Below are positions 1 to 15,457 of a stretch of 15,457 bases of DNA, in pieces; the first letter of the stretch is position 1; every line of letters starts with the position of its first letter. The DNA is from an uncultured archaeon (GTDB taxonomy: Archaea; Iainarchaeota; Iainarchaeia; Iainarchaeales; JAAZKV01): positions 1-15,457 of the forward strand of contig CAZKBG010000002.1 of assembly GCA_964551375.1 (NCBI GenBank), read 5' to 3'. Both the position numbers and the translations under genes were made by a program. The notes under the pieces are model-generated. The model did no database searches. It was not told the origin of the DNA and worked only from the letters and a program-made list of their open reading frames with translations.

Positions 1-3
1 TCT

Positions 4-76: not shown

Positions 77-90
77 TTAATATTTATTAA
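77..90 (+). promoter_or_regulatory. TATA-like box for the 114..710 gene (near-leaderless)
   Basis: TTAATATTTATTAA is centred ~30 nt upstream of ATG 114. No SD lies between them. Confidence 0.3.
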
Positions 91-113
91 CTTCAAAAAC
101 ATACTTTTGGCTG

Positions 114-710: not shown

Positions 711-787
711 TTCAAAAACCTAATTTTCACTACTAGCAAATATTATTATAGCCAGCGAAACTTAACTTTGTTAGATAAGTGAGCTAA

Positions 788-1396
788 ATGCCTGATAGTA
801 TTTATGATAAAGTAAGACTTGCAGTAGGAAAAGTAGTGGATGCAAGCGCGCACTTAAACGCAGCCGCAACTGCTGAAAAAATCGGCAAAACGCTTGGATT
901 AAGCGAAGCAATGATACAATTCACTCACATTGAACTAAGAAACTCTGTTTACGAACCTGAATACAAAAAAATTCCTTACTCTGAAAGAATAGTATTCTTA
1001 CCGCACTGCACAAGAAACAATAAAGTGTGCAAAGCAACAGTGGACGGAGAAGGAATTCACTGCAAGAATTGCGGCGGATGCGCAATTGATGAAGTGACAA
1101 AAATCGCAAAAGAACTCGGATACATGGGAGTATTCACTGCGCACGGCGGAAGCATGGTAAAAAAAATAATTGAAAAATACAAACCAAAAGCAGTTGTCGG
1201 CGTATGCTGTTTTCCTGAAGCATTAATGGGGATAGAAGGAGTAAAAGCACTAGGAAGAATACCCCAAGCGGTTCTGCTTCTTAATGACGGGTGCCAGGAC
1301 ACAGTAATGAATATTCCTTTACTAAGAGAAAAAATGCAGATGATTAATGCAACAGTTCTTGAAGAAAGCAAAAAAACAAAAGCAAAAAGAAAATAG
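788..1396 (+). CDS. DUF116-family Cys-rich protein (probable metal/Fe-S binding, function unknown)
   Basis: 202-aa ORF. It shows the pattern I associate with DUF116: FLPHCTR..C..(x)..HCKNCGGCAI followed by VVGVCCFPEAL. The call comes from motif memory, not a search. Confidence 0.6.
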   Translation: MPDSIYDKVRLAVGKVVDASAHLNAAATAEKIGKTLGLSEAMIQFTHIELRNSVYEPEYKKIPYSERIVFLPHCTRNNKVCKATVDGEGIHCKNCGGCAIDEVTKIAKELGYMGVFTAHGGSMVKKIIEKYKPKAVVGVCCFPEALMGIEGVKALGRIPQAVLLLNDGCQDTVMNIPLLREKMQMINATVLEESKKTKAKRK

Positions 1397-1424
1397 CTCT
1401 TAAAAATTTTAATTAAACTAAATT

Positions 1425-2084
1425 TTAATCAATTAATCTAACAAACCGCTCAATTTCCTCAAAATTCTTTGCTAAAAATAGAGGTCTAAATCTTCTCAAC
1501 TGATTTTCAGTAGAAATGCCGGTGGATTTTGCAATAAATTTAACTCCAAGACGCTGGCACATCAAACCATCCTGAATAGAATCTCCAATAAATACAATTT
1601 CGCTTGGTTTTAATTTTAATTTCTTCAACGCAACAACAAGAGGCTCCACATCGGGCTTTTTATGTTCCACATCATCGCTTGTAATGATAAATTTTAACTG
1701 CGATTTTGTTTTCTTATCAAAAACCGTGTCAACAAAAAGGTGCCTTGAGCCAGTAACTACTCCAAGCGGGAATTTTTTAGACATTTTTGCAATAAACTCT
1801 TTTGAATCCTTAAACCACAAAGACTTTGCTTTATTCTTTTTTAGTAGTTTAACAAAATACTTTCTTCTAAATTCAACAAACTTAGGCAAATCAATTACTT
1901 GTTTAGTTGAATCCATCAAATAATACGCAATATCCCTTGAGTGAAGCAAAGACAAATCCCTCATCTTTTGGGGAGTCACTTTAAAACCAAATTCCTTAAT
2001 CGCAGCGCTATCACTTTGCATAATCAGCGGAACAGAATTAATCAAAGTCCCATCAAGATCAATCAAAATAGCCCTAATTTTCAT
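1425..2084 (-). CDS. HAD-superfamily phosphatase (subfamily IA-like)
   Basis: 219-aa ORF with all four HAD motifs: I = LIDLDGTL (DxDxT), II = VVTGS, III = HKKPD, IV = FIGDSIQD. Confidence 0.85.
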   Translation of the reverse strand: MKIRAILIDLDGTLINSVPLIMQSDSAAIKEFGFKVTPQKMRDLSLLHSRDIAYYLMDSTKQVIDLPKFVEFRRKYFVKLLKKNKAKSLWFKDSKEFIAKMSKKFPLGVVTGSRHLFVDTVFDKKTKSQLKFIITSDDVEHKKPDVEPLVVALKKLKLKPSEIVFIGDSIQDGLMCQRLGVKFIAKSTGISTENQLRRFRPLFLAKNFEEIERFVRLID

Positions 2085-2108
2085 ATCGGAAAGATTAAAC
2101 CACTAACC

Positions 2109-2116
2109 AATATAAA
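2109..2116 (-). promoter_or_regulatory. TATA box for the HAD gene (leaderless)
   Basis: The minus strand reads TTTATATT, centred ~28 nt upstream of ATG at 2084. Confidence 0.35.
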
Positions 2117-2173
2117 CCTAACCAGAAGATGAATTCTATAAGCAAGCCAACTAGCTAAGTTAGTTGAACTATT

Positions 2174-2320
2174 GCCCCGATAGTGCAGTGGTCAAGCACG
2201 TCACCCTCTCACTGCCTTTTCTCTTTTAGGAAAAGAGAAAAGCTAAGTTGCCAAAAGAGAAAAACTTTTGACGACTGCAAGAGTGCGGTGGAGACCCGGG
2301 TCCGAATCCCGGTCGGGGTA
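2174..2320 (+). tRNA. tRNA-Glu, anticodon CTC, interrupted by a 74-nt intron at the canonical 37/38 position
   Basis: Acceptor 2174-2180/2313-2319 (G1.U72 wobble), discriminator A2320. D stem GTGC/GCAC with loop AGTGGTCAA. Anticodon stem TCACC (2201-2205)/GGTGG (2287-2291). 5' half-loop CTCTCA (2206-2211) plus C2286. T stem CCGGG/CCCGG. Mature length is 73 nt. Confidence 0.85.
2212..2285 (+). other. Archaeal tRNA intron with a bulge-helix-bulge splice motif
   Basis: 3-nt bulge TGC (2284-2286). 4-bp helix CTCT (2206-2209)/AGAG (2280-2283). 3-nt bulge CAC (2210-2212). Outer helix TGC (2213-2215)/GCA (2277-2279). Cleavage after the 2nd bulge nucleotide gives exactly the 37/38 junction. Confidence 0.8.
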
Positions 2321-2381
2321 TTAGAGAAAATGGTTGTGTATACTCCCTGTTTCTTAAAGTTAACTCCAATGATACGCACTA

Positions 2382-2390
2382 TTTTATATT
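2382..2390 (+). promoter_or_regulatory. TATA box upstream of the 2421..5478 gene cassette
   Basis: TTTTATATT lies ~35 nt upstream of GTG 2421. A partial SD (AGGT, 2411-2414) lies between them. Confidence 0.3.
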
Positions 2391-2420
2391 TTGCCGTAGT
2401 ATTTTAAGCTAGGTAATATC

Positions 2421-3593
2421 GTGCTTTTTGAGGTTTCAACAGGAAGGAATGAAATTCAAGTCATGGGAAATAATGCAGTGCTTAAAAGAAAAAATGGCGA
2501 AAGCATTCCAATACCATCAACAAGCGCGCTTGCAAAGCTTTACAAGGAACTAGCTGCTAAAAATACGCCTGAAGTGCAAAAAAAGCTAAAGGATTATTCT
2601 GATAAGTTCCCAAAAATAATGGAAGGGGACACAATAATTACAGGCGATAATACAATAGTAATTGTCCGCTCTTCATACAACAAGGGAAAAGACAAACCGA
2701 TTGAAGGAATGAAGCAAACTGCATCAAAATCAATTAATTTTGGCCCTGATTCTGAAATACGATTTTTAGGAGTTAAAAAATGGATCCGAGAGGACAAAAC
2801 CGCTCAGAAAAAATACTTTGGCGAAATGATTGAAACAATAGAAGTAAAAAAAGCAGGTTTCTTTTACTGCTCATACAGCAACTGCGAGGACACTTTAATC
2901 ACCCCAACAGCGCTTGTGGACTTTTTAGGTCTTGGAGGAGGCGTAACATTTGATTATTACAACGGAGCGCTTTATAGCGTTCCATGCCCTTCTGAAGGAA
3001 TTGGCGAAAAAGGAAGCATAAAATTCACAAACAAAAACACCAAAAAATTTTTTACCTCAAAAACAATTGAAGAAGTAATTGTCACAAGCAACGCAATTTA
3101 CAAAAAATCCTTTGCCAAGATGGACCAAATAAACTTTTTCTCCGCAAGCCAAATTGGAATGCTCGCAGTGAAAGATTTTATTCCTGATACAAGCGAAGAC
3201 CAGTACGCGCAAATGGCTAAAACAGGGGACAAAATGATGGAAGTATTTGCAAATATTGAAATGTTTAAGCAAATGGATCCAAAAGATATTATAAAATTGG
3301 CAAAGCAGGGAGGCGCCACACCCGAACAACTAAAAGAATTTGAAGACTTGCCTGAAAAACTTAAAATGATGGAAAAACAAATGCCAATGGATAAAGTAAT
3401 CAACGTTGTAGCACAGCAAAAGGCGTTCTATGAAGGAATGGGCGCGCAGGGATTTGCAAGCATGGCAAAAGTGCAAAAAAAAGCCCAAGTCAAAATGAAC
3501 GAACACTTTGACAAGGAATTCAAAGAATTTGCAAACAAGTCAAAAGAACCAAGAAAATACGGACCATTAACAAACGAATTTAAGGTGGCTTAA
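2421..3593 (+). CDS. Hypothetical cytoplasmic protein 'A': beta-rich N-terminal two-thirds plus a Met/Lys/Glu-rich helical tail. No recognisable family.
   Basis: 390-aa ORF from GTG 2421, with an alternative ATG at 2463 (Met15). No signal peptide or TM segment. No nucleotide-binding or catalytic motif that I recognise. Shares motifs with the next gene (see findings). Confidence 0.7.
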   Translation: MLFEVSTGRNEIQVMGNNAVLKRKNGESIPIPSTSALAKLYKELAAKNTPEVQKKLKDYSDKFPKIMEGDTIITGDNTIVIVRSSYNKGKDKPIEGMKQTASKSINFGPDSEIRFLGVKKWIREDKTAQKKYFGEMIETIEVKKAGFFYCSYSNCEDTLITPTALVDFLGLGGGVTFDYYNGALYSVPCPSEGIGEKGSIKFTNKNTKKFFTSKTIEEVIVTSNAIYKKSFAKMDQINFFSASQIGMLAVKDFIPDTSEDQYAQMAKTGDKMMEVFANIEMFKQMDPKDIIKLAKQGGATPEQLKEFEDLPEKLKMMEKQMPMDKVINVVAQQKAFYEGMGAQGFASMAKVQKKAQVKMNEHFDKEFKEFANKSKEPRKYGPLTNEFKVA

Positions 3594-3595
3594 TT

Positions 3596-5137
3596 ATGGC
3601 TGAAAAGAAAAAAATAAAACAGAAAAACATTGTTCAAAAAACTTCGGTCAAAAAAACGGCAAATAAAGAAGAAACTATTATTGATAAGGATCTTGCTGAA
3701 AAAATGATGAAAGCAAAAGAAGATGCAATGAAAAAGTTTAACTCAGTTGCCATGGGAAACTCAAAAGAAATAGAAGAATCAAGAGAAAAAGGAAAGCAAG
3801 TCGGCGCAATTTATAAGGAACTTGAAGAGTGCAACAAAATTGAGGAAGAATTCAAGACAAATCCTCCCTTAATGACAAGCGTTCATATTAATGGAAAACT
3901 CATTTCACAGGTTTATGATAAAGGAGTTATAGATAAAATTGCAATGCTAAAAAAACACTCGATTTCGTTTACTCCTGCTGTACACCACCAGTCAACTTTT
4001 GGAATAGAGTTTAAGGTGTTTGGCAGGGCTTATGTAAAAAGAAGCGGGCAAAAAATTCCTCTTGAAGAAAGCTTTACAGAAAATACTTTCGTTCTAAAAG
4101 ACGGCGATATTATAGGCACTGAAAATTCATCATACGTTTTTGACTTAAAAGAATACAACGAGACAGACAAAAAAAGCACAAGCATTATCATTTATCCAAA
4201 AAGTGAAATGCGCTTTTCGCTTAATGAAACCGTGACAAACCCAGCGCCCGCATTTATGGACCCTTCCAAAGTGTCAAACGCAATAAAAAGCAAGTCAAAA
4301 TCAACTGTTATTAGCCAAAAACTAACGCAAGTTGAACCATTACAGGGATTATTTTTTATTTCAATAAAAAGAGAAGGAAATGATGTGACCAAAATGCTGA
4401 AATTTGGAGCTTCATATCCAAAAATAAAATTTAAATCAGCTTCGGCAATTTATGCTGGCGTAGTAGGAGACTTAATGGAAAAAATGAAAGCGCAAAACCC
4501 AAAACTCGCGCAAATTTACGAAGCAAAGACAAACATGAGCTCAAATATTAAGGGGGCTGCAAATAGAACTTGCGATGAAATAACAGGATTCTTTGAATTA
4601 TCCGGTGACGGCTCAATAGTTATTACAAGAAGCGGGAATTTAATAGTTCATGAAAGCATCGGCAAAGAAACAAGAAAAGTTCCCACAAACGCGCTCAAGC
4701 CGATAAAAGCAACTTTTACTCATGACGCACTCTATGAAACTGATACTGGAAAGAATCCTGACAATAGAGTTGCCAAAATGGTGGAACAAGCTGCCTCCCT
4801 ATCAATATATGCGGGCGCGATAAATATGAAGAAAAGCATAGAAGAAAGGGGGAAAATAATGGGCAAGGCAAGCTCAACAAAAGATGCAAGCGTCCAAAAA
4901 GAAACCGAAGGAATGCTAAGATACGCGCAGGAAAGCGGGGATAAGGAACTCATTGAAGCTGCGCAGGCACAAATGAAATCAATGCAAAGTTATCTAAACA
5001 GCGGAGGAAGCGCGGCTGAAGAAAATGGAATACTAAAGTCCATAGCAGAATATGAAAAACAAATAAGCGCAGTAAAACCAAAACTATTATCAAGTCTTTC
5101 GCCTTATTCAAGTCCTTCGGGAAGCGACAAAGCTTAA
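3596..5137 (+). CDS. Hypothetical cytoplasmic protein 'B', paralogous to protein A. Has a Lys-rich N-terminus and a Ser/Pro tail.
   Basis: 513-aa ORF. SD AAGGTGG (3582-3588) lies inside the 3' end of the upstream gene, and its stop is 2 nt before ATG 3596, which suggests translational coupling. No TM segment or signal peptide. Confidence 0.75.
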   Translation: MAEKKKIKQKNIVQKTSVKKTANKEETIIDKDLAEKMMKAKEDAMKKFNSVAMGNSKEIEESREKGKQVGAIYKELEECNKIEEEFKTNPPLMTSVHINGKLISQVYDKGVIDKIAMLKKHSISFTPAVHHQSTFGIEFKVFGRAYVKRSGQKIPLEESFTENTFVLKDGDIIGTENSSYVFDLKEYNETDKKSTSIIIYPKSEMRFSLNETVTNPAPAFMDPSKVSNAIKSKSKSTVISQKLTQVEPLQGLFFISIKREGNDVTKMLKFGASYPKIKFKSASAIYAGVVGDLMEKMKAQNPKLAQIYEAKTNMSSNIKGAANRTCDEITGFFELSGDGSIVITRSGNLIVHESIGKETRKVPTNALKPIKATFTHDALYETDTGKNPDNRVAKMVEQAASLSIYAGAINMKKSIEERGKIMGKASSTKDASVQKETEGMLRYAQESGDKELIEAAQAQMKSMQSYLNSGGSAAEENGILKSIAEYEKQISAVKPKLLSSLSPYSSPSGSDKA

Positions 5138-5175
5138 GAATTTAAAAGTTATAATTAATGCACGGAGGTGCAATT

Positions 5176-5478
5176 ATGGGAATAATGGATGATGCTTTAG
5201 GAAATATTGTTAATCGAACAAAAGACTCTCTTTCCTACAAAGCAGGCGATTTAATTACTGGCGCTGCTGTTAAAGGAGCAGGAAAAATTGCCAATAAAGC
5301 AACAGGTGCAAAAAGCGCCGTGCTTGATAAATGCCCAAAATGCAAGACAAAACTCCAGCCGGATGCAAAGTTCTGTCCTTCATGCGGACAAGCATTAGTA
5401 GTAACATGCCCTAAATGCAATGTTGCATACCAGTTAGGAACAAAGTTTTGCACACAATGCGGCGGAAAATTAGCATAA
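5176..5478 (+). CDS. Double zinc-ribbon protein (DZR-like)
   Basis: Two CxxC-x(10-12)-CxxC ribbons: CPKCKTKLQPDAKFCPSCG and CPKCNVAYQLGTKFCTQCG. The ORF opens at 5158, but a strong SD (GGAGGTG, 5163-5169) sits 6 nt before ATG 5176, so 5176 is the likelier start. Confidence 0.75.
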   Translation: MGIMDDALGNIVNRTKDSLSYKAGDLITGAAVKGAGKIANKATGAKSAVLDKCPKCKTKLQPDAKFCPSCGQALVVTCPKCNVAYQLGTKFCTQCGGKLA

Positions 5479-5588
5479 CAAAATTGCTTTTGACTGCCCT
5501 GTTGTGCAGATATTATACTGCATGTAATTGTTGCTTCAATTTAGTTGAAAATATGCTTCTAATTGGATTCAAAAGCCGAAATACTTTG

Positions 5589-5597
5589 TTTTATATA
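5589..5597 (+). promoter_or_regulatory. TATA box for the pilin-like/giant-protein gene pair (leaderless transcript)
   Basis: TTTTATATA is centred ~26 nt upstream of ATG 5619 with no SD between them. It lies in a 140-nt intergenic gap. Confidence 0.45.
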
Positions 5598-5618
5598 TTT
5601 CCAAGTTATTAACTTAAT

Positions 5619-6302
5619 ATGCAAAAAACTGGTTTTAGGGCGCGAGAGAAAGAGTTGGTTGCCCAAGGGACAATCGAGTATCTTGTTATTATTGCGGTTG
5701 TTATAGTTTTGGCGTTGGTTGCTTCTTATTTTATGTTTGCTTCTATGGGTTCTGCTTCTCAGGCTGATAAGGCTTCTTTGAAGGCTGCTTGGCAGTCTAA
5801 GGAAGTGGGGATTGCTGATTTTGCGGTTAATGAGGATGGGAATGGGCAGATTGCGATTATGAATAATTCTTCAGGGCTTGCGAGGATAAAAAAAGTTTAT
5901 ATTAATGGGGTTTTGACTTATGATGGGACTTTGCCGCTTTCGCAGTTTGATAGGTATACTATTGGTTCGTTTGCGAGTGCGGTTGCTTCGTGTAGTTCTA
6001 ATGTAAGGTATAGGATAAGAATTATTTATGAGTCTGAGTCGGGTCTTGAGCAGATTGTTGAGGGGGATTTGTATGCGGAGTGTATTCCGAATTTTTTGGT
6101 GAGTGGTTTCTTTTCTTTGGGCGCGGGGGTTGATTTTAATTCTGGTGCTTCAGATAATGTTGCTCTTCAAGATGGGAATTATGCCTTAGTGGATACTAAT
6201 TTGTTTAATTCGGTTGTTCTTGATAATATTTCTGATTTGAGTGTTGTTGATTCTAATACGAGTCATGTTGGTGGGCAAGTAATTTTAGGGCAGGCGAGCT
6301 AA
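5619..6302 (+). CDS. Archaeal type IV pilin-like protein with a class III (prepilin-type) signal peptide
   Basis: 227-aa ORF. The charged N-terminus MQKTGFRAREKELV is followed by AQGTIEYLVIIAVVIVLALVASYF (5661-5730). This matches the class III / DUF361-type motif (A/G)Q(G/A)xxEYL plus a hydrophobic helix. The remainder is beta-rich. Confidence 0.75.
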   Translation: MQKTGFRAREKELVAQGTIEYLVIIAVVIVLALVASYFMFASMGSASQADKASLKAAWQSKEVGIADFAVNEDGNGQIAIMNNSSGLARIKKVYINGVLTYDGTLPLSQFDRYTIGSFASAVASCSSNVRYRIRIIYESESGLEQIVEGDLYAECIPNFLVSGFFSLGAGVDFNSGASDNVALQDGNYALVDTNLFNSVVLDNISDLSVVDSNTSHVGGQVILGQAS

Positions 6303-6303
6303 A

Positions 6304-9300
6304 ATGAAAATGAAGACTGCTTATTGGGTTGTTACAATATTTTTTATTTTAATTTCTTTATCGGTTGCATTTGCTTATAATTGTCCTGGTGGAGATGGAA
6401 GCAGTGACTTAAATATTTCCACAAACACTACTTGGGCTAGCGCGACTGATTATAATTGCAATAATGTTTTCATAACAAATGGCTCCATGTTGACTTTTAA
6501 CTCAAGAACTGCGGGCTCAAAAATAACTCTTTACGCAGCAAGTCTTACAATTGATGAAAACTCAAAAATATCTTCTGATGATTACGGCTCGTTAAACGGA
6601 GCTGGTTCTGGTGCGGGCGGAGCAGCATATGCTGGAGGGGGAGGAGCAGGATATGGTGGAGCTGGAGGCGCTGGTTCTGGGGCTGGAGGAGCCGCTTTTG
6701 GTGTAAGTGATATGAATCAGCCTACTTCTTTTGGTTCAGGGGGAGGAACAAGCACAAACTATAGCTCAAGAGGAGGATACGGCGGCGGAGCAATCAGACT
6801 AATAGTTAGCGGAACAATTACAAATAATGGAATTATTTCAAGCAACGGCGGAATGGGTGCTGGATCCGGAGGATATGTTGGCGGCTCGGGTTCCGGAGGA
6901 AGCGTTTGGATTGATGCAAATATATTAACAGGAATCGGGCGAATTGACGCAAACGGCGGACCAAGGGCAAGCGGTTCAGCAGGCGGAGGGGGAGGAGGAA
7001 GAATAGCAATTTATGTTCAAAACAACTCTTCACTTCCTGCAATAAATGTATTTGGAAGCAGCGGTTCTGGAAGCAACGGCTCAATATTCCTTTCAGCAAA
7101 CAATTCTGATTTTAATGTTCCAAGTCTAAATACAGGCGACTTGAATGTTTTTAGAGTAAAAAACTTTTACAGTTTAATAACTTCAGGAAGCAATTATAGA
7201 TTTGTTGTTGTAAATTTAAGCGGAGACTTTAACGGCTCTGTTTCTGCAGGGCTTCAATCTGACACAAATATTTCGGGAGCAAATATTTATCCTGACAACA
7301 TAACAAGCGGGAAAATAAAAATTGTTTCAACAAACCTCAATCTTGCAAGCGGGAAAAATATTTCAGCAAACGGACTCGGTAATTTGAATGCTGCGGGTGC
7401 CGGAGCTGGCGGAGCAGGATATTGGGGGGCTGGAGGAGCAGGATATGGAGGGGCAGGAAGCGGAGGCTCAAGCGGTGCTGGCGGGGCTTCATTTGGTTTA
7501 AGCGATATGAACCAGCCGACTGCGCTTGGCTCTGGTGGAGGAACAAGCACAAATTACACCACTCCTGGAGGTTATGGAGGGGGAGCTATTAGATTAATTA
7601 TAAACGGGACTCTTACAAATGAAGGAATAATTTCAAGCAATGGAACTCCTGGCTCTGGCTCAGGCAGCGCGGTTGGAGGAAGCGGTTCTGGAGGAAGTAT
7701 TTGGATTGATGCAAATGTTTTAACAGGAACTGGAAGAATTGACGCAAACGGCGGAATGGGAGTAACTAGCGCAGCAGGGGCAGGGGGAGGAGGGCGAATT
7801 GCAGTTTATGTTTTAAGAAATTCTTTTATTTCATCAATAAACACTATGGGGGGTTCTGGCAGCGGAACAGGAAGCCGAGGGTCTGTTTTTATTTCATCAT
7901 TAGGGTATGACTTCAACATTCCTAATGTATATGCTGGAGATGTAAATGTAACTGGAGTTCGCAATTTTTATAGCAGTATTTCATCGAGCGGAAACAGCAG
8001 GTTTGTTGTTTTTAATTTAATCGGAGATTTTAATGGCTCAATAACATCAGGCCTTCAATCAGATGTAAACATTACAGGAGTAAATATTAATCCAAGCACA
8101 ATTATTGGGGGAAGAATAAGAATCACCGCAACAAGCCTTACACTTTCAAGCGGAAATACAATTTCAGCTAATGCCCTTGGCTCAATAAATAGCGCAGGAA
8201 CTGGAGCTGGCGGAGCAGCATATAACGGGGGCGGGGGTGGAGGTTATGGTGGAGCTGGCGGAGCGGGCTCGGGAAGCACTGGCGGAATAGCTTATGGCTC
8301 AATGTCACAGCCAACTGATTTAGGCTCTGGCGGGGGATTAAGTACTAATTATGGTAATATTGGCGGATACGGCGGAGGAGCAATAAGAATTATTTTAAGC
8401 GGAGCTTTGGCAAATGATGGAATAATTTCAAGCAACGGCGGGACAGGAACAAGCAGTTCTTCTTATGCAGGCGGAAGCGGTTCTGGGGGAAGTATTTGGA
8501 TTGATGCGGGTTCTCTTTTAGGAACAGGGCGAATTGATGCAAATGGAGGAGTGCTCGCAACAGGCTGGTCTGGCGGAGGAGCTGGAGGAAGAATAGCGCT
8601 TTATGTAACCGGGGCATCAACAATGGGGGCAATTAATACAACCGCAAGCGGTTCAGGAAGCAACGGCACAGTATATATCTCATCAACAGGATCTGATTTT
8701 AATGTTCCAACAATAATAACAGGAGACACAAACTTTTTAGGAATCAGAAACTTTTTTGGGACAATAACCTCAAGCGGAAGCTCAAGGTTTAATCTAATAA
8801 CAATAAACGGGGATTTTAATGGTTCAATAACAGCAGGGCTTCAATCAGATGTTAATATCACAGGCGGGAACTTGTACCCTGACACTATTATTGGAGGAAA
8901 AGTAAAACTTGTTGCAACAAATATTAGTATCGCAAGCGGAAAATTAGTTTCAACAAATGCGCTTGGAAATGTTAATTCAGCAGGAGCTGGAGCTGGCGGA
9001 GCAGCATATAATGGCGGAGGGGGAGGGGGATACGGTGGAGCTGGCGGAGCGGGCTCCGGAAGCGCTGGCGGAGCAGTGTATGGCGCAAGCGATGCAAATC
9101 AGCCGACCGCACTTGGCTCTGGCGGTGGATTAAGCACAAATTATGGCAACATAGGGGGTTATGGTGGCGGGGCAATTAGAATAATTGCAAGCGGAACATT
9201 TTCTAATAATGGAATTATATCTTCAAACGGCGGACTTGGCACAAGTAATTCTTCTTATGCTGGAGGAAGCGGTTCTGGAGGAAGCATTTGGATAACAACA

Positions 9301-10092
9301 AATAAGTTTAACGGCGCAGGAAGAATTGATGCAAACGGCGCTCCAGGAATAACCGGCTGGGCAGGGTGCGGAGGAGGAGGAAGAATTGCAATCTGGTATG
9401 ATACAAATACATTTAGCGGAAATATTATTGCTTCAGCTGGATGCGGAGGAGGAGGCGCGGGGTCAAGGAACTGGGTTTATAGTTATGCGGGACCAAATTA
9501 CATTTTAAGCGGGAGTTTTACTTCAAAGAAAATTAATTTAGCTTATGGAAAAGATTTTAATGTTCTTAATTTTGATGTGAATTTGCCAAGCGGAACAAAT
9601 GTTTCGTTTAAGTTAAGGACTGCCTCAAACAGCAGTGATTTGGATAATTCTCCTTGGCTTGGTCCAAGCGGAACAACTGCAAGCGATGATAATTACTCAA
9701 CAAGTGGAACAGCAATTTCTGGAGTTCATGACGGTAATTCTTGGGTTCAGTGGAAAGCATTCTTATCAACTGCAAGCGCTACTTCAACTCCCATAGTTTT
9801 TGATGTTAATATTATGGTTAGAAATAAGGTTGATTCGAATGCGGTGTTTGTTTTGGAAAAGGGGGTTCAGTATAATTGGTTGAGTTTAGTGCCAACTCAA
9901 GCGCTTAATGGCGGGACAATTAATTGGTATTATTGTTTGACTCAAAATTGCGCGTCTTGGATATTGCTTGGGCCAAGCGGGGGTTCAATTGGCCAGACAA
10001 ATCAAAATCTTTATTTACTTGCAACAATGCACCCTGATGAAAATAACAATTCCCCACAAATAAGCGAAGTGCTTGTGCACTATTCAAAATAA
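6304..10092 (+). CDS. Giant secreted glycine-rich tandem-module surface protein (putative beta-helical adhesin), without a C-terminal anchor
   Basis: 1262-aa ORF. Sec-type signal peptide MKMKTAYWVVTIFFILISLSVAFA|Y. Four ~265-aa modules, then a ~200-aa non-Gly-rich C-terminal region. No TM segment or sorting signal at the C-terminus (...EVLVHYSK*). ATG 6304 is 1 nt after the pilin-like gene's stop. Confidence 0.85.
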   Translation: MKMKTAYWVVTIFFILISLSVAFAYNCPGGDGSSDLNISTNTTWASATDYNCNNVFITNGSMLTFNSRTAGSKITLYAASLTIDENSKISSDDYGSLNGAGSGAGGAAYAGGGGAGYGGAGGAGSGAGGAAFGVSDMNQPTSFGSGGGTSTNYSSRGGYGGGAIRLIVSGTITNNGIISSNGGMGAGSGGYVGGSGSGGSVWIDANILTGIGRIDANGGPRASGSAGGGGGGRIAIYVQNNSSLPAINVFGSSGSGSNGSIFLSANNSDFNVPSLNTGDLNVFRVKNFYSLITSGSNYRFVVVNLSGDFNGSVSAGLQSDTNISGANIYPDNITSGKIKIVSTNLNLASGKNISANGLGNLNAAGAGAGGAGYWGAGGAGYGGAGSGGSSGAGGASFGLSDMNQPTALGSGGGTSTNYTTPGGYGGGAIRLIINGTLTNEGIISSNGTPGSGSGSAVGGSGSGGSIWIDANVLTGTGRIDANGGMGVTSAAGAGGGGRIAVYVLRNSFISSINTMGGSGSGTGSRGSVFISSLGYDFNIPNVYAGDVNVTGVRNFYSSISSSGNSRFVVFNLIGDFNGSITSGLQSDVNITGVNINPSTIIGGRIRITATSLTLSSGNTISANALGSINSAGTGAGGAAYNGGGGGGYGGAGGAGSGSTGGIAYGSMSQPTDLGSGGGLSTNYGNIGGYGGGAIRIILSGALANDGIISSNGGTGTSSSSYAGGSGSGGSIWIDAGSLLGTGRIDANGGVLATGWSGGGAGGRIALYVTGASTMGAINTTASGSGSNGTVYISSTGSDFNVPTIITGDTNFLGIRNFFGTITSSGSSRFNLITINGDFNGSITAGLQSDVNITGGNLYPDTIIGGKVKLVATNISIASGKLVSTNALGNVNSAGAGAGGAAYNGGGGGGYGGAGGAGSGSAGGAVYGASDANQPTALGSGGGLSTNYGNIGGYGGGAIRIIASGTFSNNGIISSNGGLGTSNSSYAGGSGSGGSIWITTNKFNGAGRIDANGAPGITGWAGCGGGGRIAIWYDTNTFSGNIIASAGCGGGGAGSRNWVYSYAGPNYILSGSFTSKKINLAYGKDFNVLNFDVNLPSGTNVSFKLRTASNSSDLDNSPWLGPSGTTASDDNYSTSGTAISGVHDGNSWVQWKAFLSTASATSTPIVFDVNIMVRNKVDSNAVFVLEKGVQYNWLSLVPTQALNGGTINWYYCLTQNCASWILLGPSGGSIGQTNQNLYLLATMHPDENNNSPQISEVLVHYSK
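6520..9486 (+). repeat. Four in-frame tandem coding modules (6520-7311, 7312-8112, 8113-8898, 8899-~9486; the last is truncated)
   Basis: Module starts KITLYAASLTI, KIKIVSTNLNL, RIRITATSLTL and KVKLVATNISI lie 792, 801 and 786 nt apart. GGYGGGAIR, GGSGSGGS(V/I)WI and GRIDANG each occur once per module (4 times). GDFNGS..GLQSD occurs in modules 1-3. Confidence 0.9.
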
Positions 10093-10150
10093 ATTTAAAA
10101 ATTAATTATTAACTTACTAAGATAGAATTATTTAGGATAAATTTTTTAGT

Positions 10151-11728
10151 TTAAGTTCTTCTTGGCAACTCTTCAATAGCTCCATCAACTACTTTTAGTA
10201 TTCGTTGAGCGATTTTGTCAATGAAATATCTATCATGAGAAACAGCAACAATTGCTCCCTCGTAACTTAAAAACGCTTTTTCAATAATTTCACACGCATC
10301 AAGATCAAGATGGTTTGTAGGCTCGTCAAGGAGCAGAATATTTGGCTTTGTGAGAAGAACTTTCAATAAATTAAGCCTTGATTTTTCGCCAAAAGATAAA
10401 TTTGAAATTGATTTGCTAACTTCTTCATTAGTAATAAATCCAACCATTGACAAACTCTGTCTTGTTTTTGCCTTATCCTTAAGCATTGCAAAAATCTCAT
10501 CATAAAGAGTGGAATGCGCGGTTAAATCCTTTAATTCTTGATCAACATACCCTAATTTTCCCTGCTGGTCAAGAATTGCTTTTCCGCCAAGCGGAGGAAC
10601 TCTTCCCTCAATAGTTTTGAAAAGAGTGCTTTTGCCGATTCCATTCTCGCCGATTATTATAATTCTCTGCCCAACGCAAACGTTAAGATTAATATGTGAA
10701 ATCAGCGGCTTTTTGTAGCCAACTGTCAAGTCATTAAGCTCAAGAACCATGTGCGATTTTATCGGAGATGCCTCAAAAGGAGTTTCAAAATCCGACTGGT
10801 CAAGGTCAGGCTTTTCAATAACTTCTCTTTTCTCAAGAAGCTTAACCCTGTACTTCATCTGCTTAACTTTTTTCGGACTCGTTCCAATTCTTGCAATCTT
10901 GTCTTTTTGCTTCTCTAAATAATCCTGCTCATTTTCATACGCTGTCTGCTGCGCAGCAAAATTAGCTTCCCTGATTTTTAAATAAGTGGAGTAATTTCCG
11001 TTATACTTAGTCAATTTTCCGCTTTCTATTTTTATAATCGAGCTGCAAATCTGATTCAAGAAATATCTGTCGTGAGTAACCATGAGAACAGTTCCCTTGA
11101 AGGATTTTAAATAATCTTCAAGAATTTCAAGTCTCTTAAAATCCAAATGATTTGTTGGCTCATCAAGAAGCAAAAAATCCGCGTCTGAAGACAAAATCTG
11201 CGCAAGCGCAATTATTGCCCTCTGCCCTGTTGAAAGCGAGCCAACTTTTTTGTCAAGCCACTCATCAGTAACATCAAGAGTTTTTAAAACAGATTTAATT
11301 TTATTTGTGGGGGTAGTGTCATTGTGCTTCGCAAGCTCTGTTTGAAGCGCTACATACTTCTCAGTCAATTTATTCAATCTGTCATGATCTTCATAAACTT
11401 CAGGCAAAAGAAGGAGTTTTTCAATTTCCTGCATTTCCTTTTCAAATTTATTTTGATGATGAATTGTGGCTCTTTGAGCGATTACTTCCCATCCTGTTTT
11501 ATTCAAATCAATATCAATATTTTGGGAAAAATAAGCCGCTTTGCCGTTAAAATTAATGTGCCCGTGATAATCAACCATTCCCAAAATCGCTTTTAAGAGA
11601 GTAGTTTTTCCAACACCGTTTCTTCCAATAAGCCCAACTTTTGCGCCGTCCTCAATTCCAAAGCTTTCATCAAGGAGAATCTCCTGCTTTCCAATAGTAA
11701 TTCCAAGGTTCTTAACAGTCAGAGCCAT
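10151..11728 (-). CDS. ABC-F family ATPase (two ABC domains, no TM domain; EttA/YbiT-like translation-factor type)
   Basis: Walker A GRNGVGKTT and GENGIGKST. Signatures LSTGQ and LSFGE. LLLDEPTNHLD occurs twice. A charged ~80-aa interdomain linker is present (YLKIREANFAAQQTAYENEQDYLEKQKDKIARI...). The track ORF starts at TTG 11734, but ATG 11728 (MALTVKNL) is the likelier start. Confidence 0.85.
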   Translation of the reverse strand: MALTVKNLGITIGKQEILLDESFGIEDGAKVGLIGRNGVGKTTLLKAILGMVDYHGHINFNGKAAYFSQNIDIDLNKTGWEVIAQRATIHHQNKFEKEMQEIEKLLLLPEVYEDHDRLNKLTEKYVALQTELAKHNDTTPTNKIKSVLKTLDVTDEWLDKKVGSLSTGQRAIIALAQILSSDADFLLLDEPTNHLDFKRLEILEDYLKSFKGTVLMVTHDRYFLNQICSSIIKIESGKLTKYNGNYSTYLKIREANFAAQQTAYENEQDYLEKQKDKIARIGTSPKKVKQMKYRVKLLEKREVIEKPDLDQSDFETPFEASPIKSHMVLELNDLTVGYKKPLISHINLNVCVGQRIIIIGENGIGKSTLFKTIEGRVPPLGGKAILDQQGKLGYVDQELKDLTAHSTLYDEIFAMLKDKAKTRQSLSMVGFITNEEVSKSISNLSFGEKSRLNLLKVLLTKPNILLLDEPTNHLDLDACEIIEKAFLSYEGAIVAVSHDRYFIDKIAQRILKVVDGAIEELPRRT

Positions 11729-11780
11729 ACACAATTAACAATTAGGCAAATTCTTAAATGATGCTAAAGAAAGGGGGTTT

Positions 11781-12266
11781 TTATAAAATATTGCAGGCTT
11801 TAGCCCCTTTTTTCTTCAAATACTTCTGATGATACTCTTCAGCAGGGTAAAATTCGCTTGCTTTTCTAAGCTCTGTGACAATTTTTCTTGACTGGTGAAT
11901 CTTTAACGCGCCGTACTTTTTAATAAAATCCTCCGCTGACTTTTTTTGCTCCTGATTGTGATAAAAAATAATTGACTTGTACTGAGTTCCAATATCAGGG
12001 CCCTGCCTGTCAAGCGAAGTGGGGTTATGCATTTTAAAAAATTTGTCAAGAAGCTTATCATAATCAATTATTTTTGGGTCGAACTCGAGCTGAACAACTT
12101 CAACATGCTCTGTTTCTCCAGTGCAGACTTCTTCATAAGTAGGATTTTTAGTATTTCCTCCTTCATAGCCAACTTTTGTTAAAACAACACCTTTTGTTTT
12201 CATAAACTCATCTTCAACATGCCAAAAGCACCCTGCTCCAAAAGTCGCTAATTGATTTTTGTTCAT
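11781..12266 (-). CDS. msrA: Peptide-methionine (S)-S-oxide reductase
   Basis: 161-aa ORF with the catalytic GAGCFWHVE (GCFW) motif and the conserved GY.GG......YE.V..G.T.H.E.V core. SD GGTGA lies just upstream. Confidence 0.9.
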   Translation of the reverse strand: MNKNQLATFGAGCFWHVEDEFMKTKGVVLTKVGYEGGNTKNPTYEEVCTGETEHVEVVQLEFDPKIIDYDKLLDKFFKMHNPTSLDRQGPDIGTQYKSIIFYHNQEQKKSAEDFIKKYGALKIHQSRKIVTELRKASEFYPAEEYHQKYLKKKGAKACNIL

Positions 12267-12299
12267 AAATTCACCAAAAAATATTTAGATTATGTAATT

Positions 12300-12635
12300 C
12301 TACTTCAGCTCTTCTTTAAAATCAAGCGCGCAAGAGTTTAAACAGAAGCGCTTTTTTGTTTCTGTCGGGCCGTCATCAAAAACATGCCCTAAGTGAGAGC
12401 CGCATTTTGCGCAAATTATTTCAGTTCGAGTCATGAACAAGTCTTTGTCAGTTTTAAGCTTTAATGCCCTATCATTTATGGGGCGGTCAAAACTCGGCCA
12501 GCCCGTTCCTGACTCAAATTTGGCTTCTGAAGAGAATAATTTATTCCCGCACGCAGCGCAGCGATAAATGCCGTCCTTTTTATTAAATAATAATTTTCCA
12601 GTAAAAGGAAGCTCAGTGCCCTTCTTTCTAAGCAC
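12300..12635 (-). CDS. msrB: Peptide-methionine (R)-S-oxide reductase. The conserved N-terminus is displaced into another frame (12636-12703).
   Basis: Two Zn-binding CxxC pairs (CAACG, CAKCG), GTGWPSF, HLGHVFDDGP, and catalytic RFCLNS. The ORF as tracked begins at GTG 12635. An ATG-initiated N-terminus (MNSKKLPKNEEEWANTL) lies upstream in a different frame. Confidence 0.85.
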   Translation of the reverse strand: MLRKKGTELPFTGKLLFNKKDGIYRCAACGNKLFSSEAKFESGTGWPSFDRPINDRALKLKTDKDLFMTRTEIICAKCGSHLGHVFDDGPTETKKRFCLNSCALDFKEELK

Positions 12636-12820
12636 TTTATACTGCTCTTGGGTAAGGTATTAGCCCATTCTTCCTCATTTTTAGGCAGTTTTTTTGAGTT
12701 CATAAGCGGAAATTGTGATTAGTAGTTAGTTTAAATTTAACTTTGAAATTAAGGCACTTATTTATATTACATGATTAGATTTGGATATATTAAAGGTTAG
12801 TTTTTTTAAAGGTGAACTAA

Positions 12821-13390
12821 ATGGACGCAGTATTAATCGGAGTTTCGGATAGGAGCCTTCTTTGGCGCGCTGGGCAAATCAAAGAAATTGATTATAAAAA
12901 ATTTGTAAATGATTATGCAAAATTCTTTGCGGAAAACTTTGAAAATGTGATTGTGACTCCTGACGACGGGGTGTATACTGACATTGCAATTGAATTTGGG
13001 AAATTAAAAGGAAAAAAACCAATTGCATACTATCCTGATAAAGACACTTATTATGGGACAAGCCATATTGAGAAAAATTATCCTAATTATGACTTGCGCA
13101 AAATTGACGGTGACTGGTATAAACTCAACGCAGACCTCACAAAGCAGGCTCTGTGCGTTGTATGCCTTGGAATTTCGCCAGGAGTTTTAATAGAAGCGTC
13201 ATACATCAAGTACCACCAATCATACGGCGCGTACAAAAATCCAAAACTAAAAAATATTCACTTATTTTTCGACAAAAGAACAGCAAAAAACGATTTGCCT
13301 CAAGGATTTGTTGAGCAGATAAAAAATTTTTATTATTTTGATAATGTTAATGAACTAAAAAAACTGATTGGAAAAATAAATTTATTTTAA
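12821..13390 (+). CDS. Hypothetical protein, possibly a degenerate LOG/TIGR00725-like Rossmann-fold protein
   Basis: 189-aa ORF with SD AGGTGA 5 nt upstream. Its layout resembles TIGR00725/LOG proteins: VLIGVS..., NVIVTPDDGVYTDIAIEFGKLKGKKPIAYYP, CVVCLGISPGVLIEAS. However, the glycine motifs (TGGGxG, GGxGT) are replaced. The similarity was judged by eye only. Confidence 0.3.
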   Translation: MDAVLIGVSDRSLLWRAGQIKEIDYKKFVNDYAKFFAENFENVIVTPDDGVYTDIAIEFGKLKGKKPIAYYPDKDTYYGTSHIEKNYPNYDLRKIDGDWYKLNADLTKQALCVVCLGISPGVLIEASYIKYHQSYGAYKNPKLKNIHLFFDKRTAKNDLPQGFVEQIKNFYYFDNVNELKKLIGKINLF

Positions 13391-13402
13391 TTCTACTTTA
13401 TT

Positions 13403-13456
13403 TGTGAATAAATTTGAACATTGTGAACTGTGAATTTTCATAGTTCATTTTTCACA
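13403..13456 (+). promoter_or_regulatory. Cluster of TGTGAA / TTCACA motifs upstream of the TATA box (candidate transcription-factor operator)
   Basis: TGTGAA at 13403-13408, 13422-13427 and 13429-13434. Inverted TTCACA at 13451-13456. TGAAC at 13415-13419 and 13424-13428, with inverted GTTCA at 13443-13447. Confidence 0.3.
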
Positions 13457-13462
13457 ATTCCT

Positions 13463-13469
13463 TTATATG
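13463..13469 (+). promoter_or_regulatory. TATA box for the 13554 surface-protein gene
   Basis: TTTATAT lies ~88 nt upstream of ATG 13554. SD GAGGT (13542-13546) lies 7 nt before the ATG, which implies a leadered mRNA. Confidence 0.4.
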
Positions 13470-13553
13470 CTTTTCGGTAGTAATCTATTCAGTTATTCGT
13501 TTTTTGGTGTTTAGCAAACACTAATTGATGGGCTGACATGAGAGGTAATCTTG

Positions 13554-15457
13554 ATGGGTTATAGTTTGGGTAAAAAAGTTGTTAATGTATTTTTGATTTT
13601 ATTTTTAGTCATGTTTTTAGTTGGCGCTGCAAGCGCTGCGCACTCACAAACAACAACAATTACACCTGAATCGTCTGTAGCCTCTGTTTCAACTTTATTT
13701 AATGCAGCTGTTGCCATTGACGGGGCAAATTCAGTGGATTATGTGCGAATTGTGATTCCTACAAACGGTGCTGGTTATAGCGCATTAACTTGCGGAGCAG
13801 CTCCTGCTAATTGGAGTCTTGCTTCAAGTGACGCAACAACTTGTGTTTATACAACTTCTTCCGCTCCAATAACTCCGGGGAATCACTTGGATTTTTCTTT
13901 AACTGCAACTACTGCTGGGGATACTGGAACTTACACTTGGGCAGTGAGAACAACAGATAGTGCTGCCGCAATAGTTAATACAAGCCCAACAACAGCTGTT
14001 GATGGGGATGCTCCAACTGCTGGAATAGAGTATTCAAAAAATGCTGGTGTTGATTACTACTCAACAATCAAAGTAAAAGACGCTGATACATTGTTAATTA
14101 AAGCAACTTTTAACGAGCCAATGGCTGATTCACCAGTTGTTAAAATAGCAGTTGATAATGATGTTTTAGTTGCTACTGCAATGACAAAAGTCAGCTCAAC
14201 AGTTTACACTTATTCGTTAAATGTCCCTGCGGGGAATGTTAATACTGCAACAGTTTCCCTTAGTGTTGGGACTGACATTGCGGGCAATGTTATTACATCT
14301 GCACCAACAAGCGGAGCAACATTTACTATTGACAATTTACCGCCTACAACACCAACTTCAGTTCATATTACTTCAAGTAACGCAAATCCGACTTTAGCAA
14401 AAGTAGGAGATACTGTTACAATTACAGCAACTGTTGATTCAGGAACTACAGTAACTGGAACAATTGGCGGAAAAGCAACAACTACTAATGTTGTAAGCGA
14501 TACAACTGCCACTCTTACTCGAATCTTAGATGGTTCTGAAACTGAAGGCGCTGGACTTAATTTTACATTGGTTTCTACTGATGCTGCAGGAAATGATGCA
14601 ACTACAGTAACCAAAGCAGACATATTGGATGCCTCTGCTGTTCAAACAGATTTTACTGCTCCCTCATTTAATGCTGAAAATGGTGTTGCTGCTGGTCCGG
14701 TTAAAACTGATGTTATAAAGGTTATAATTACTGACGCTGCTGGGGGATATTTTGGTTTTAGTGCGAATGCTACTTGTGATGGTAGTGATACTATAAATCA
14801 GGAGTTTACATCTGAAGTTGAGTTTAATGTTGTTGGTGATCATACTGATTATTTGTGTGTGAAAGCTACTGATGCAGCAGGAAATATAGGTTACGAAACT
14901 GTTGGGCAGTTGAATACAGATAATACGCCGCCTACTGTTGAGTTAACTCAAGCTCATGCGGATTTAATTGTTAAAGATGCTGATGCTGATGTTACAATAA
15001 CTGCGACATTTAATGAGAATATGGCTGATACACCAACTATTTCAATTGATGGTCCTGGTGAATGCGATATTACTAGTCAAGCAATGAGTGGTTCTAATAA
15101 AGTTTGGACTTATGCTTGGAATGTTCCTGCTTTGTGTGATGGGGATGCAACAGTAACAGTTTCAGGAACAGATGTTGCAACAAATGCATATGCTGGGGCA
15201 ACAAATTTAGTTTTCACAATTGATAATACAGCTCCGTCATTCACTGATACTGATGATGTTGCTGCTGGTCCAGTTAAAACTGATATTATAAGGGTTACAA
15301 TTACTGGCGCTTCTGGGGGATATTTTGGTTTTAGTACAAACGCTACTTGTGATGGTGACGATACAATAGATCAACCATTTGGATCTACAGTTCCTTTTGA
15401 TGTTGCTGGTGATCACACTGATTATTTGTGTGTGAAAGCTACTGATGCAGCAGGAAA
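13554..15457 (+). CDS. Large secreted surface protein with Ig-like (SbsA/Big_5-like) domain repeats; S-layer or adhesin candidate; 3'-truncated by the window end
   Basis: My own translation is open from ATG 13554 to the window end (634 codons). This ORF is absent from the supplied track because it has no stop. Signal peptide MGYSLGKKVVNVFLILFLVMFLVGAASA|AH. Thr/Ala/Val/Asp-rich beta domains carry recurrent ...ATFNE(P/N)MAD.P..., TD(A/I/V)AGN and FTIDN..P motifs. Confidence 0.8.
   Translation, partial: MGYSLGKKVVNVFLILFLVMFLVGAASAAHSQTTTITPESSVASVSTLFNAAVAIDGANSVDYVRIVIPTNGAGYSALTCGAAPANWSLASSDATTCVYTTSSAPITPGNHLDFSLTATTAGDTGTYTWAVRTTDSAAAIVNTSPTTAVDGDAPTAGIEYSKNAGVDYYSTIKVKDADTLLIKATFNEPMADSPVVKIAVDNDVLVATAMTKVSSTVYTYSLNVPAGNVNTATVSLSVGTDIAGNVITSAPTSGATFTIDNLPPTTPTSVHITSSNANPTLAKVGDTVTITATVDSGTTVTGTIGGKATTTNVVSDTTATLTRILDGSETEGAGLNFTLVSTDAAGNDATTVTKADILDASAVQTDFTAPSFNAENGVAAGPVKTDVIKVIITDAAGGYFGFSANATCDGSDTINQEFTSEVEFNVVGDHTDYLCVKATDAAGNIGYETVGQLNTDNTPPTVELTQAHADLIVKDADADVTITATFNENMADTPTISIDGPGECDITSQAMSGSNKVWTYAWNVPALCDGDATVTVSGTDVATNAYAGATNLVFTIDNTAPSFTDTDDVAAGPVKTDIIRVTITGASGGYFGFSTNATCDGDDTIDQPFGSTVPFDVAGDHTDYLCVKATDAAG
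14685..15457 (+). repeat. In-frame 573-nt (191-aa) period duplication inside the surface-protein gene
   Basis: 14685-14884 aligns without gaps to 15258-15457 at roughly 85% identity by eye. The final 41 nt are identical (actgattatttgtgtgtgaaagctactgatgcagcaggaaa). The intervening Big_5-like domain (14930-15240) also resembles 13995-14340 at the protein level. Confidence 0.85.

Follow-up and report, generated by a model that had tools for sequence, protein, structure and literature searches.

Two adjacent genes in a 15,457-nucleotide (nt) stretch of DNA from an uncultured archaeon (contig CAZKBG010000002.1, positions 1 to 15,457, called the window below) encode a pilin-like protein of 227 amino acids (aa) and a glycine-rich, Sec-dependent giant of 1262 aa. 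The pair is conserved in relatives, a check that a preliminary description of this DNA had called for, and it recurs there in several distinct genomic contexts. In our judgment there is about an even chance that it is a two-gene cassette with which a DPANN (Iainarchaeota-type) archaeon docks a passenger protein and displays it at the cell surface. Great size and glycine richness, which had been taken as the defining features of the second gene, did not hold up: the partner proteins of relatives are 593-1176 aa long and carry GLUG or LamG passengers, and the sole constant part of the large partner is its C-terminal domain (CTD), made up of two units, CTD-a and CTD-b.

In the mechanism that we favor, cleavage before Q16 would leave the pilin-like protein with a hydrophobic N-terminal helix, an immunoglobulin (Ig)-like beta-sandwich and a tail of about 70 aa. 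The second gene would be translationally coupled to the first, and Sec would export its product, whose passenger part, four Gly-rich repeats of the solenoid type, ends in the double beta-sandwich CTD. Outside the membrane, the CTD and the pilin tail would bind each other. Through its helix, the pilin would then keep hold of the passenger in one of two ways: as a minor or tip pilin at the end of a type IV pilus-like filament, or as a protein seated in the membrane itself. The principle would be that of PilY1/PilC on minor pilins or of a dockerin on its cohesin, with a putatively adhesive passenger that would be exchangeable. Docking between tail and CTD is the most economical explanation because the tailed pilin subfamily and the terminal CTD are constant while the passenger is freely exchanged.

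The gene pair recurs in different genomic contexts

All seven signal-peptide-bearing proteins that end in the complete CTD (a+b) and have a readable context adjoin a class III pilin-like gene. These are the window, L012, L066, L068, L070, L004 and the P0145 locus (Table 1), with two of the pilins (L066, P0145) partly verified or unverified; the L005 and L007 partners end at a contig edge before their C-terminus and stand outside the count. The synteny sample is small and partly truncated, and the independence of the lineages is argued from the differing flanking genes alone. Chance adjacency is excluded by the repeated pairing in different contexts. The junctions between the two genes are tight across lineages, which argues for the display reading.

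The CTD of the L012 partner is 34% identical to that of the window (E 6e-30), and the CTD at L004, where the gene order is reversed, is 28% identical (E 7e-13). Partners in L004, L005, L012, L066 and L068 have Pfam Glug matches with E values from 1e-12 to 1e-16. The pilins of L005 and of the P0125 contig show 55-58% identity, and the metagenome-assembled genome (MAG) STF1_169 carries two cassettes (L012 and L007). At L070 (5509-8004), the pilin domain is fused to Gly_rich_2 (E 6e-22) and an ALK/LTK-type glycine-rich domain (E 4e-7), so glycine-rich modules occur on either cassette partner. The L068 cassette adjoins a divergent FlaI-like T2SSE ATPase (NCBIfam FlaI, E 3e-46) and a polytopic membrane protein of 802 aa (813 aa as an open reading frame). 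A metagenome scan with a narrower CTD alignment turned up two short loci, L066 and L067; only the former was informative.

Table 1. Loci that carry the gene pair, with the spacing between the two genes and the genes beside them (MAG, metagenome-assembled genome; CTD, C-terminal domain).
Locus	Pilin-like gene	Junction	Large partner	Neighboring genes
Window	227 aa	1 nt	Gly-rich giant with CTD	zinc ribbon, ABC-F
L012 (Ca. Iainarchaeum STF1_169)	215-218 aa, by start codon	5 nt	670 aa, GLUG + CTD	aCPSF1, proteasome
L007 (also MAG STF1_169)	second pilin	5 nt	at least 577 aa, cut by contig end	
L005; P0125 contig	pilin	22 nt (L005); 4 nt (P0125 contig)	GLUG, cut by contig end (L005)	AcnX / mevalonate genes
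L066	last 11 codons of upstream gene (...TGDNNISLGEA, stop), matching pilin family C-terminus	TAA, 1 nt, ATG	P0143, 663 aa, GLUG + CTD	
L068	232 aa	5 nt	P0144, GLUG + CTD	FlaI-like ATPase, archaeosortase
L070	831-aa class III protein	4-nt overlap	P0149, signal peptide + CTD	RuBisCO
P0145 locus (JGI 3300072015)	214 aa, no Pfam match	0 nt	LamG + CTD	ferredoxin
L004 (reversed order)	P0128, downstream, with Shine-Dalgarno-like GGTGAT	56 nt	GLUG + CTD	HEAT-repeat gene

Three features of these loci may be recorded here. Immediately downstream of the L068 cassette lie a 201-aa exosortase/archaeosortase-family protein (7873-8478; TIGR04178, E 7e-10) and a 2729-aa protein with an N-terminal transmembrane helix (9233-13782); the CTD proteins have no sortase-type tail. 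About 5 kb upstream of the P0145 pair, on the opposite strand, a gene encodes a product of exactly 1262 aa with no Pfam match, the same length as the window giant.

The pilin-like protein

The 227-aa product has an N-terminus of the class III type (AQGTIEYLVIIAVVIVLAL), with predicted cleavage at A|QGTIEYLVIIAVVIVLALV. The helix lies immediately behind this predicted site, has Q at +1 and E at +5, and reaches a maximum mean Kyte-Doolittle hydropathy of 2.98. Residues Q16 to L22 are invariant in the sequences aligned (8/8 and 20/20), as are nine further helix positions in eight orthologues. Those eight orthologues, 41-84% identical, all have the QGTIEYL.II..VIVLAL block, Cys125 and Cys155. Orthologues P0124-P0128 have precomputed matches to Pfam Class_IIIsignal (PF04021), those of P0126 and P0128 being listed as weak; the pilin of L068 reaches 23.8 bits, just over the cut-off of 23.7.

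AlphaFold2, run with 20 sequences, predicted a helix at residues 17-59, strands at 63-156 (predicted local distance difference test score, pLDDT, 70-92 for the block) and a tail at 160-227 with pLDDT below 50 when modeled alone. The low confidence in the tail may partly reflect the shallow alignment. No relative of the protein with a solved structure was found by sequence. By fold, the four best Foldseek matches include the archaeal type IV pilins of Pyrobaculum (8fk7), Sulfolobus (Aap, 8q30) and S. islandicus (6nav), with E values of the order of 1e-4 (1.6-3.6e-4), which bears out the earlier view of the protein as pilin-like. The archaellin 9eq7 and FlaF (4p94) come next, and unrelated generic beta-sandwiches score similarly. 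Because of the family-level class III matches, the predicted helix and beta-sandwich, and the Foldseek matches to archaeal type IV pilins, we regard the protein as a pilin-like class III protein, and efficient cleavage of this particular copy as possible.

The same N-terminus heads a very large set of Iainarchaeota paralogues, of which 86 class III genes, for proteins from about 150 to more than 1300 aa, were counted in the related loci L004-L067. A hidden Markov model (HMM) of the pilin tail, about 70 aa long and with the motif ..G-Y-x-x-L-x-D-S/T-N..L-D-N.., matched cassette pilins only (loci L001-L072). That the tail HMM is specific to cassette pilins although so many class III genes were counted is a further argument for the display reading.

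The pilin gene (5619-6302) has an extreme bias at the third codon position (A 0.09, T 0.56, G 0.32, C 0.03) that is absent from the other genes in the window, including the coupled giant, and from orthologous pilins. Recent replacement or inversion, or selection on a leaderless mRNA, are possible causes.

The large partner and its C-terminal domain

The giant is 22.1% Gly and 14% Ser and contains 29 N-x-S/T sequons. Its sole hydrophobic segment is the N-terminal signal ending in AFA|Y, as had been described before; no other 19-residue window exceeds a mean Kyte-Doolittle value of 1.6, and a C-terminal transmembrane helix is therefore missing. There is likewise no tripartite tail of the archaeosortase/PGF-CTERM kind, since the protein has no hydrophobic segment past the signal peptide and ends in ...SEVLVHYSK. 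Its sequence thus supports export by Sec without a membrane anchor. The earlier statement that the giant lacks a sorting tail is correct for transmembrane and PGF-CTERM-type tails and misleading otherwise, as it overlooks the conserved 200-aa CTD that tracks the pilin gene.

The four repeats are 52-62% identical among themselves, with autocorrelation peaks at lags of 265 and 529 and a weak one at 29. The recurring GGGxIxL...G.I.AnGG pattern and the weak 29-residue periodicity suggest that they probably form a beta-solenoid. Under composition-adjusted scoring they are 40-47% identical over about 190 aa, with up to 584 bits, to modules of proteins of about 2000-2200 aa: P0002 and about 900 others, mostly bacterial, the few with a named source coming from Planctomycetota, Verrucomicrobiota and other bacteria. 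Neither the giant nor its repeats matched any family in Pfam or NCBIfam, Glug (PF07581) included, and a sequence search of the PDB gave a chance-level E of 0.13. For Gly_rich_2 (PF21722) and ALK-LTK glycine-rich (PF12810), the repeats gave no match even at E<=10.

AlphaFold2 modeled the CTD (200 aa, residues 1062-1262) with 40 sequences as two consecutive beta-sandwiches at a mean pLDDT of 90.4. It had no Pfam match even at E<=10 and none in NCBIfam or PDB sequence searches. Matches by fold are weak and generic (template modeling scores of 0.3-0.45) and include the tail protein of Haloferax virus HFTV1, the two-domain PHM, CBM22 tandems, botulinum HA3 and phage tail or baseplate proteins.

The CTD family was revealed by an exhaustive search of representative proteins, which found 823 at E<=1e-3; a word-indexed homology search returned only P0148. 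Among the 150 matches listed, 14 proteins match nearly the whole a+b unit, and in 11 of these 14 it lies at the extreme C-terminus. It is preceded by a GLUG beta-helix in P0143, P0144 and P0153, by three LamG domains in P0145, and by a Cys-rich region in P0149. An a+b unit at the extreme C-terminus is the mark of pilin-linked partners.

Docking and display weighed against other explanations

Gene context supports the proposal, made in the preliminary description, that the pilin acts as the tether of the giant, and it leaves that proposal unproven; the accompanying statements that the giant "cannot hold itself on the cell" and that its partner is a "tip pilin" were inferences. As to the form that display would take, the filament version is favored by the FlaI-like ATPase beside the L068 cassette, and the version with a stalk in the membrane by the usually stand-alone position of the cassette and by the fact that large proteins of this phylum commonly have class III N-termini.

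Several observations weigh against docking and display. The class III signal claimed earlier for the 227-aa product stands at the level of the family, by its PF04021 matches and invariant helix, and is less secure for the window copy, which scores 19.2 bits, below the cut-off of 23.7; the family as a whole qualifies for PF04021, and the window copy is borderline. Rules of the FlaFind type expect a short charged leader ending in [K/R][G/A] just before the cleavage site. At position -2 the window copy has V and P0122 has S, with K or R in nine other aligned cassette pilins. The window leader has an allowed A at -1 and basic residues at -5, -7 and -9, and it contains a 7-aa insertion relative to P0122. 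In the CTD model, the last strand is packed inside its own CTD-b sandwich (pLDDT about 96), and a donated strand in the manner of PilY1 is not evident. Most of the 150 listed CTD matches cover CTD-a alone, often internally or as several stretches, so that CTD-a is a widespread general extracellular module. The other 149 listed CTD-a proteins include 17 with their own C-terminal transmembrane helix and one with its own class III signal. No class III peptidase, assembly ATPase or platform gene was found either in the window or in the preceding 4.4 kb. The earlier remark that the window has no assembly genes thus holds; the L068 cassette, by contrast, has a FlaI-like ATPase and a polytopic membrane protein beside it.

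A last point on this side is P0151 (L071, 766-4026), a CTD protein that has neither a signal peptide nor an adjacent pilin and whose first 340 or so residues are replaced by a NUMOD3/treble-clef nuclease-like segment. We rejected it as a counter-example because a copy without a signal peptide, fused to such a region, looks disrupted. Probably a mobile endonuclease gene has disrupted a cassette here, or else this is a fused gene call.

An S-layer-like arrangement, in which an unpolymerised pilin-like protein serves as a membrane stalk and anchors the large protein as the canopy of a surface coat, is unlikely in our estimation, though it accounts for a good deal. The giant is anchorless and Sec-exported, the pair has a strong canonical TATA box with leaderless spacing, the window contains no pilus machinery, and class III N-termini occur in these genomes on proteins of 150 to more than 1300 aa, which suggests that they are frequently used simply as anchors. 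A lattice-forming S-layer protein would be unusual, however, in having such widely varying passengers and two cassettes in STF1_169. Nor is there homology to SlaA or SlaB, and the FlaI-like ATPase adjoining the L068 cassette also speaks against a coat.

We give a similarly low probability to co-expression without physical coupling. The CTD would then be a lectin or receptor-binding module for glycans of the cell itself or of a host, or the giant would be released, and the pilin would merely be a co-regulated surface or filament subunit. The weak fold matches to phage tail/receptor-binding proteins and to CBM-like tandems, together with HA3, mean that the CTD tandem jelly-roll could be a ligand-binding head rather than a dock, and the presence of CTD-a in hundreds of multidomain proteins is in keeping with this. 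What such a reading leaves unexplained is that the terminal a+b CTD tracks one tailed pilin subfamily across passengers and contexts, and that the junctions are of 0-5 nt. Should the two proteins not bind, the giant would be a secreted, modular repeat protein of an ordinary sort that has relatives among bacteria.

Very improbable, finally, is pilin-assisted secretion, in which a pseudopilin or tip pilin pushes or escorts the giant across the envelope for release, as in the type II secretion system or with TcpF/CofJ and TcpB/CofB; an anchorless giant genetically coupled to a pilin and the ATPase beside the L068 cassette would suit it, but the giant has its own Sec signal, no outer membrane is known in these archaea that would call for a further step of secretion, passengers of the beta-helix, GLUG and LamG types are usual for adhesins and not for soluble effectors, and to our knowledge the mechanism is known from bacteria only.

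Within docking and display, a more general version can be put forward, which we consider possible but doubtful: a previously unrecognized docking system in which the tailed pilin subfamily of DPANN archaea, through its disordered tail, recognizes a portable CTD that has moved in a plug-and-play manner between passengers of four or more unrelated types. One of these passenger types shares its repeat module with bacterial giant surface proteins. If this version is true, a genome-reduced archaeon could re-arm its pilus tip or membrane stalk with new adhesins by cassette exchange. The system would then be the archaeal equivalent of docking between PilY1 and minor pilins or between cohesin and dockerin, and it would be a candidate for what determines the specificity for host or substrate.

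Comparison with known systems

Pilin-linked, Sec-dependent adhesins are already known as a kind. In bacteria, a complementing beta-strand at the C-terminus of PilC/PilY1 retains it on minor pilins of the PilK type (PMC12918778), and archaeal type IV pilus loci with Sec-dependent PilY-like adhesins (DUF2341, Epd-type loci) have been proposed (PMC4858521). Computational surveys of archaeal type IV filament loci have described large Sec-dependent PilY-like, beta-helical and Ig-rich adhesin-like proteins, whose tip location was proposed by analogy with Pseudomonas PilY1 (PMC4858521; bioRxiv 10.64898/2026.04.22.720090). The suggestion that the window holds an undescribed system therefore needs qualifying. 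Full-text literature searches returned no description of this cassette or of its CTD, and its parts fall outside those families; PilY-like and beta-helical adhesins with archaeal pilins had been proposed before.

Like PilY1/PilC, the cassette encodes a large Sec-exported non-pilin protein beside a pilin-like gene, and the proposed logic is the same, in that a pilin would hold the adhesin through the adhesin's C-terminal region. It differs in having neither the PilY1 beta-propeller nor DUF2341 (no Pfam match), its CTD being a double beta-sandwich; a single dedicated tailed pilin replaces the PilIJK-type set, and the pair usually lies away from the machinery. Modular type IV pilins such as PilB and PilC of Streptococcus sanguinis (PMC8179133), and the Iainarchaeota class III proteins of 400-1300 aa, also use a pilin N-terminus to display an extracellular module, which in the cassette would be supplied in trans from a second, Sec-dependent gene rather than fused. 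L070 is intermediate, with a pilin fused to Gly_rich_2 that is still followed by a CTD protein. The Tad pili of Myxococcus (Kil/Tad) carry exchangeable minor-pilin "Tips" (PMC12075869), which resemble the cassette in placing variable domains on exchangeable tip components, and several cassettes per genome are possible. Those tips are minor-pilin complexes, whereas the cassette is archaeal, consists of one pilin and a non-pilin partner, and has no sequence homology to them.

Cohesin-dockerin pairs resemble the cassette in having a portable C-terminal module on many passengers; the CTD has no relation to dockerin in sequence or fold, and the likeness is one of design only. In the Sulfolobus S-layer, SlaB anchors the anchorless SlaA, and there too a large anchorless Sec protein and a small membrane-anchored partner share an operon. 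The cassette has no homology to these proteins, its passengers vary, and SlaB uses a C-terminal transmembrane helix instead of a class III N-terminus.

The "beta strand repeat-containing" giants of Verrucomicrobiota and Planctomycetota (P0002-P0120) share the Gly-rich module at the identity given above, with the pattern ..PTxLGSGGG..GGxGGGAIxL..GxLTxxGxIsAnGG..GGGSGGSIWidA..GRIAvYy. Unlike the window giant, they are bacterial, about 2000-2200 aa long and without a known link to pilins. Their C-terminal or accessory domains include Ig, dockerin, CarboxypepD_reg, Big_5 and DUF11. A design of passenger plus docking tail fits these relatives, since P0002 ends in a dockerin and others have known C-terminal or accessory domains of different kinds.

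Little is known of the ways in which DPANN archaea attach to hosts and surfaces, and a mode of attachment has been assigned to few of their large surface proteins. A pilin adaptor with a CTD-tagged passenger offers a concrete hypothesis on this point; a role in host contact is speculation. The pilin tail HMM and the terminal a+b CTD would provide a simple genomic signature for displayed adhesins in metagenomes, and docking would extend to archaea, with unrelated parts, the principle of a minor pilin that holds a non-pilin adhesin on pili.

Genomic setting and transcription signals

The window is archaeal and belongs to a contig of 96,961 bp that was also assembled from sequencing runs SRR12133403 and SRR12133404. 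Two tRNA genes lie in the window, one for tRNA-Met and one interrupted by a long intron; a Logan contig that continues it on the upstream side carries genes for Rpb7, Spt4, S24e, S27, Kae1 and ribose-5-phosphate isomerase. Both focal proteins have their nearest relatives in MAGs labeled Candidatus Iainarchaeum/ainarchaeum or "uncultured archaeon", on which grounds we take the host to be a DPANN archaeon, probably one of the Iainarchaeota. Neither open reading frame is a chance product, because both genes have real homologues.

The arrangement of the two genes was confirmed as previously given: a gap of 140 nt precedes the pilin gene, and the pilin stop codon (6300-6302) is followed after 1 nt by the ATG of the giant at 6304. 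The gap lies between the end of the upstream zinc-ribbon gene at 5478 and the ATG at 5619. The deposited NCBI version of the giant (P0001, 1260 aa) begins two codons later, at the next Met (6310). The TATA box reported in the gap is present 21 nt before the pilin ATG and starts at 5590 rather than 5589 (Table 2). It is the single exact copy of TTTATATA in the window. The looser TTTAWATA is no more frequent than expected (3 found vs 4.1 expected), so the position of the box carries the weight, not its count. A distance of 21 nt is the expectation for a leaderless archaeal mRNA; the L007 orthologue has an identical TTTATATA at an identical spacing, and the L012 orthologue has ATTATATA 22 nt before a TTG start. 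The two genes would share a transcript that is probably leaderless.

Table 2. Coordinates of the features of the two-gene unit in the window.
Feature	Position	Strand	Basis or remark
TATA box TTTATATA	5590..5597	+	21 nt upstream of pilin ATG 5619; putative promoter, from consensus and spacing
Pilin leader peptide, aa 1-15 (MQKTGFRAREKELVA)	5619..5663	+	predicted class III cleavage after A15, from RGQ/KGQ/KAQ|GTIEYL orthologue alignment
Pilin hydrophobic N-terminal helix, aa 16-59 (QGTIEYLVIIAVVIVLALV...)	5664..5795	+	invariant columns, hydropathy, AlphaFold2 helices 17-43 and 46-59
Pilin globular beta-sandwich, aa 63-156, conserved Cys125 and Cys155	5805..6086	+	AlphaFold2, block pLDDT 70-92
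Pilin C-terminal tail, aa 160-227	6096..6299	+	subfamily-specific, conserved in subfamily; candidate docking segment
Giant Sec-type signal peptide, aa 1-24 (MKMKTAYWVVTIFFILISLSVAFA|Y)	6304..6375	+	equivalent signal peptides on relatives' partner proteins
Giant N-terminal cap, aa 25-65, Cys27 and Cys52	6376..6498	+	
Giant, four tandem Gly-rich repeats of about 265 aa (aa 66-330, 331-595, 596-859, 860-1061)	6499..9486	+	autocorrelation, repeat alignment
CTD-a, first beta-sandwich, aa 1062-1175	9487..9828	+	AlphaFold2
CTD-b, second beta-sandwich, aa 1176-1262, ends at C-terminus	9829..10089	+	AlphaFold2, synteny
T6 run	10142..10147	+	within 58-nt convergent intergenic spacer; possible archaeal terminator of the two-gene unit

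Recent horizontal transfer was considered as the source of a rise in GC content at 6000-10000 and rejected. The third-position GC content of the giant (0.28) matches that of its neighbors, and the rise is not of foreign origin because it sits in codon position 2, reflecting Gly, Ala and Ser content.

Upstream of the pair, the intron-containing tRNA lies at 2174-2320 on the forward strand (47.5 bits to the Rfam tRNA model across 147 nt, with no ARAGORN call). It is followed at 2421-5137 (+) by genes for adjacent Lys/Glu-rich proteins of 390 and 513 aa, after which comes a gene for a double zinc-ribbon protein. The 390-aa and 513-aa proteins have no assigned family, their sole match being a sub-threshold one to Caudo_TAP (E 0.004). 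All three genes are kept in Logan contigs of the same strain; they were rejected as parts of the system because no other cassette locus has them. At 13554-15455 (+), some 3.5 kb away from the cassette, a second protein with a Sec signal (MGYSLGKKVVNVFLILFLVMFLVGAASA|AHSQ...) runs past the 3' end of the window. It is a large surface protein of at least 634 aa with no Pfam match.

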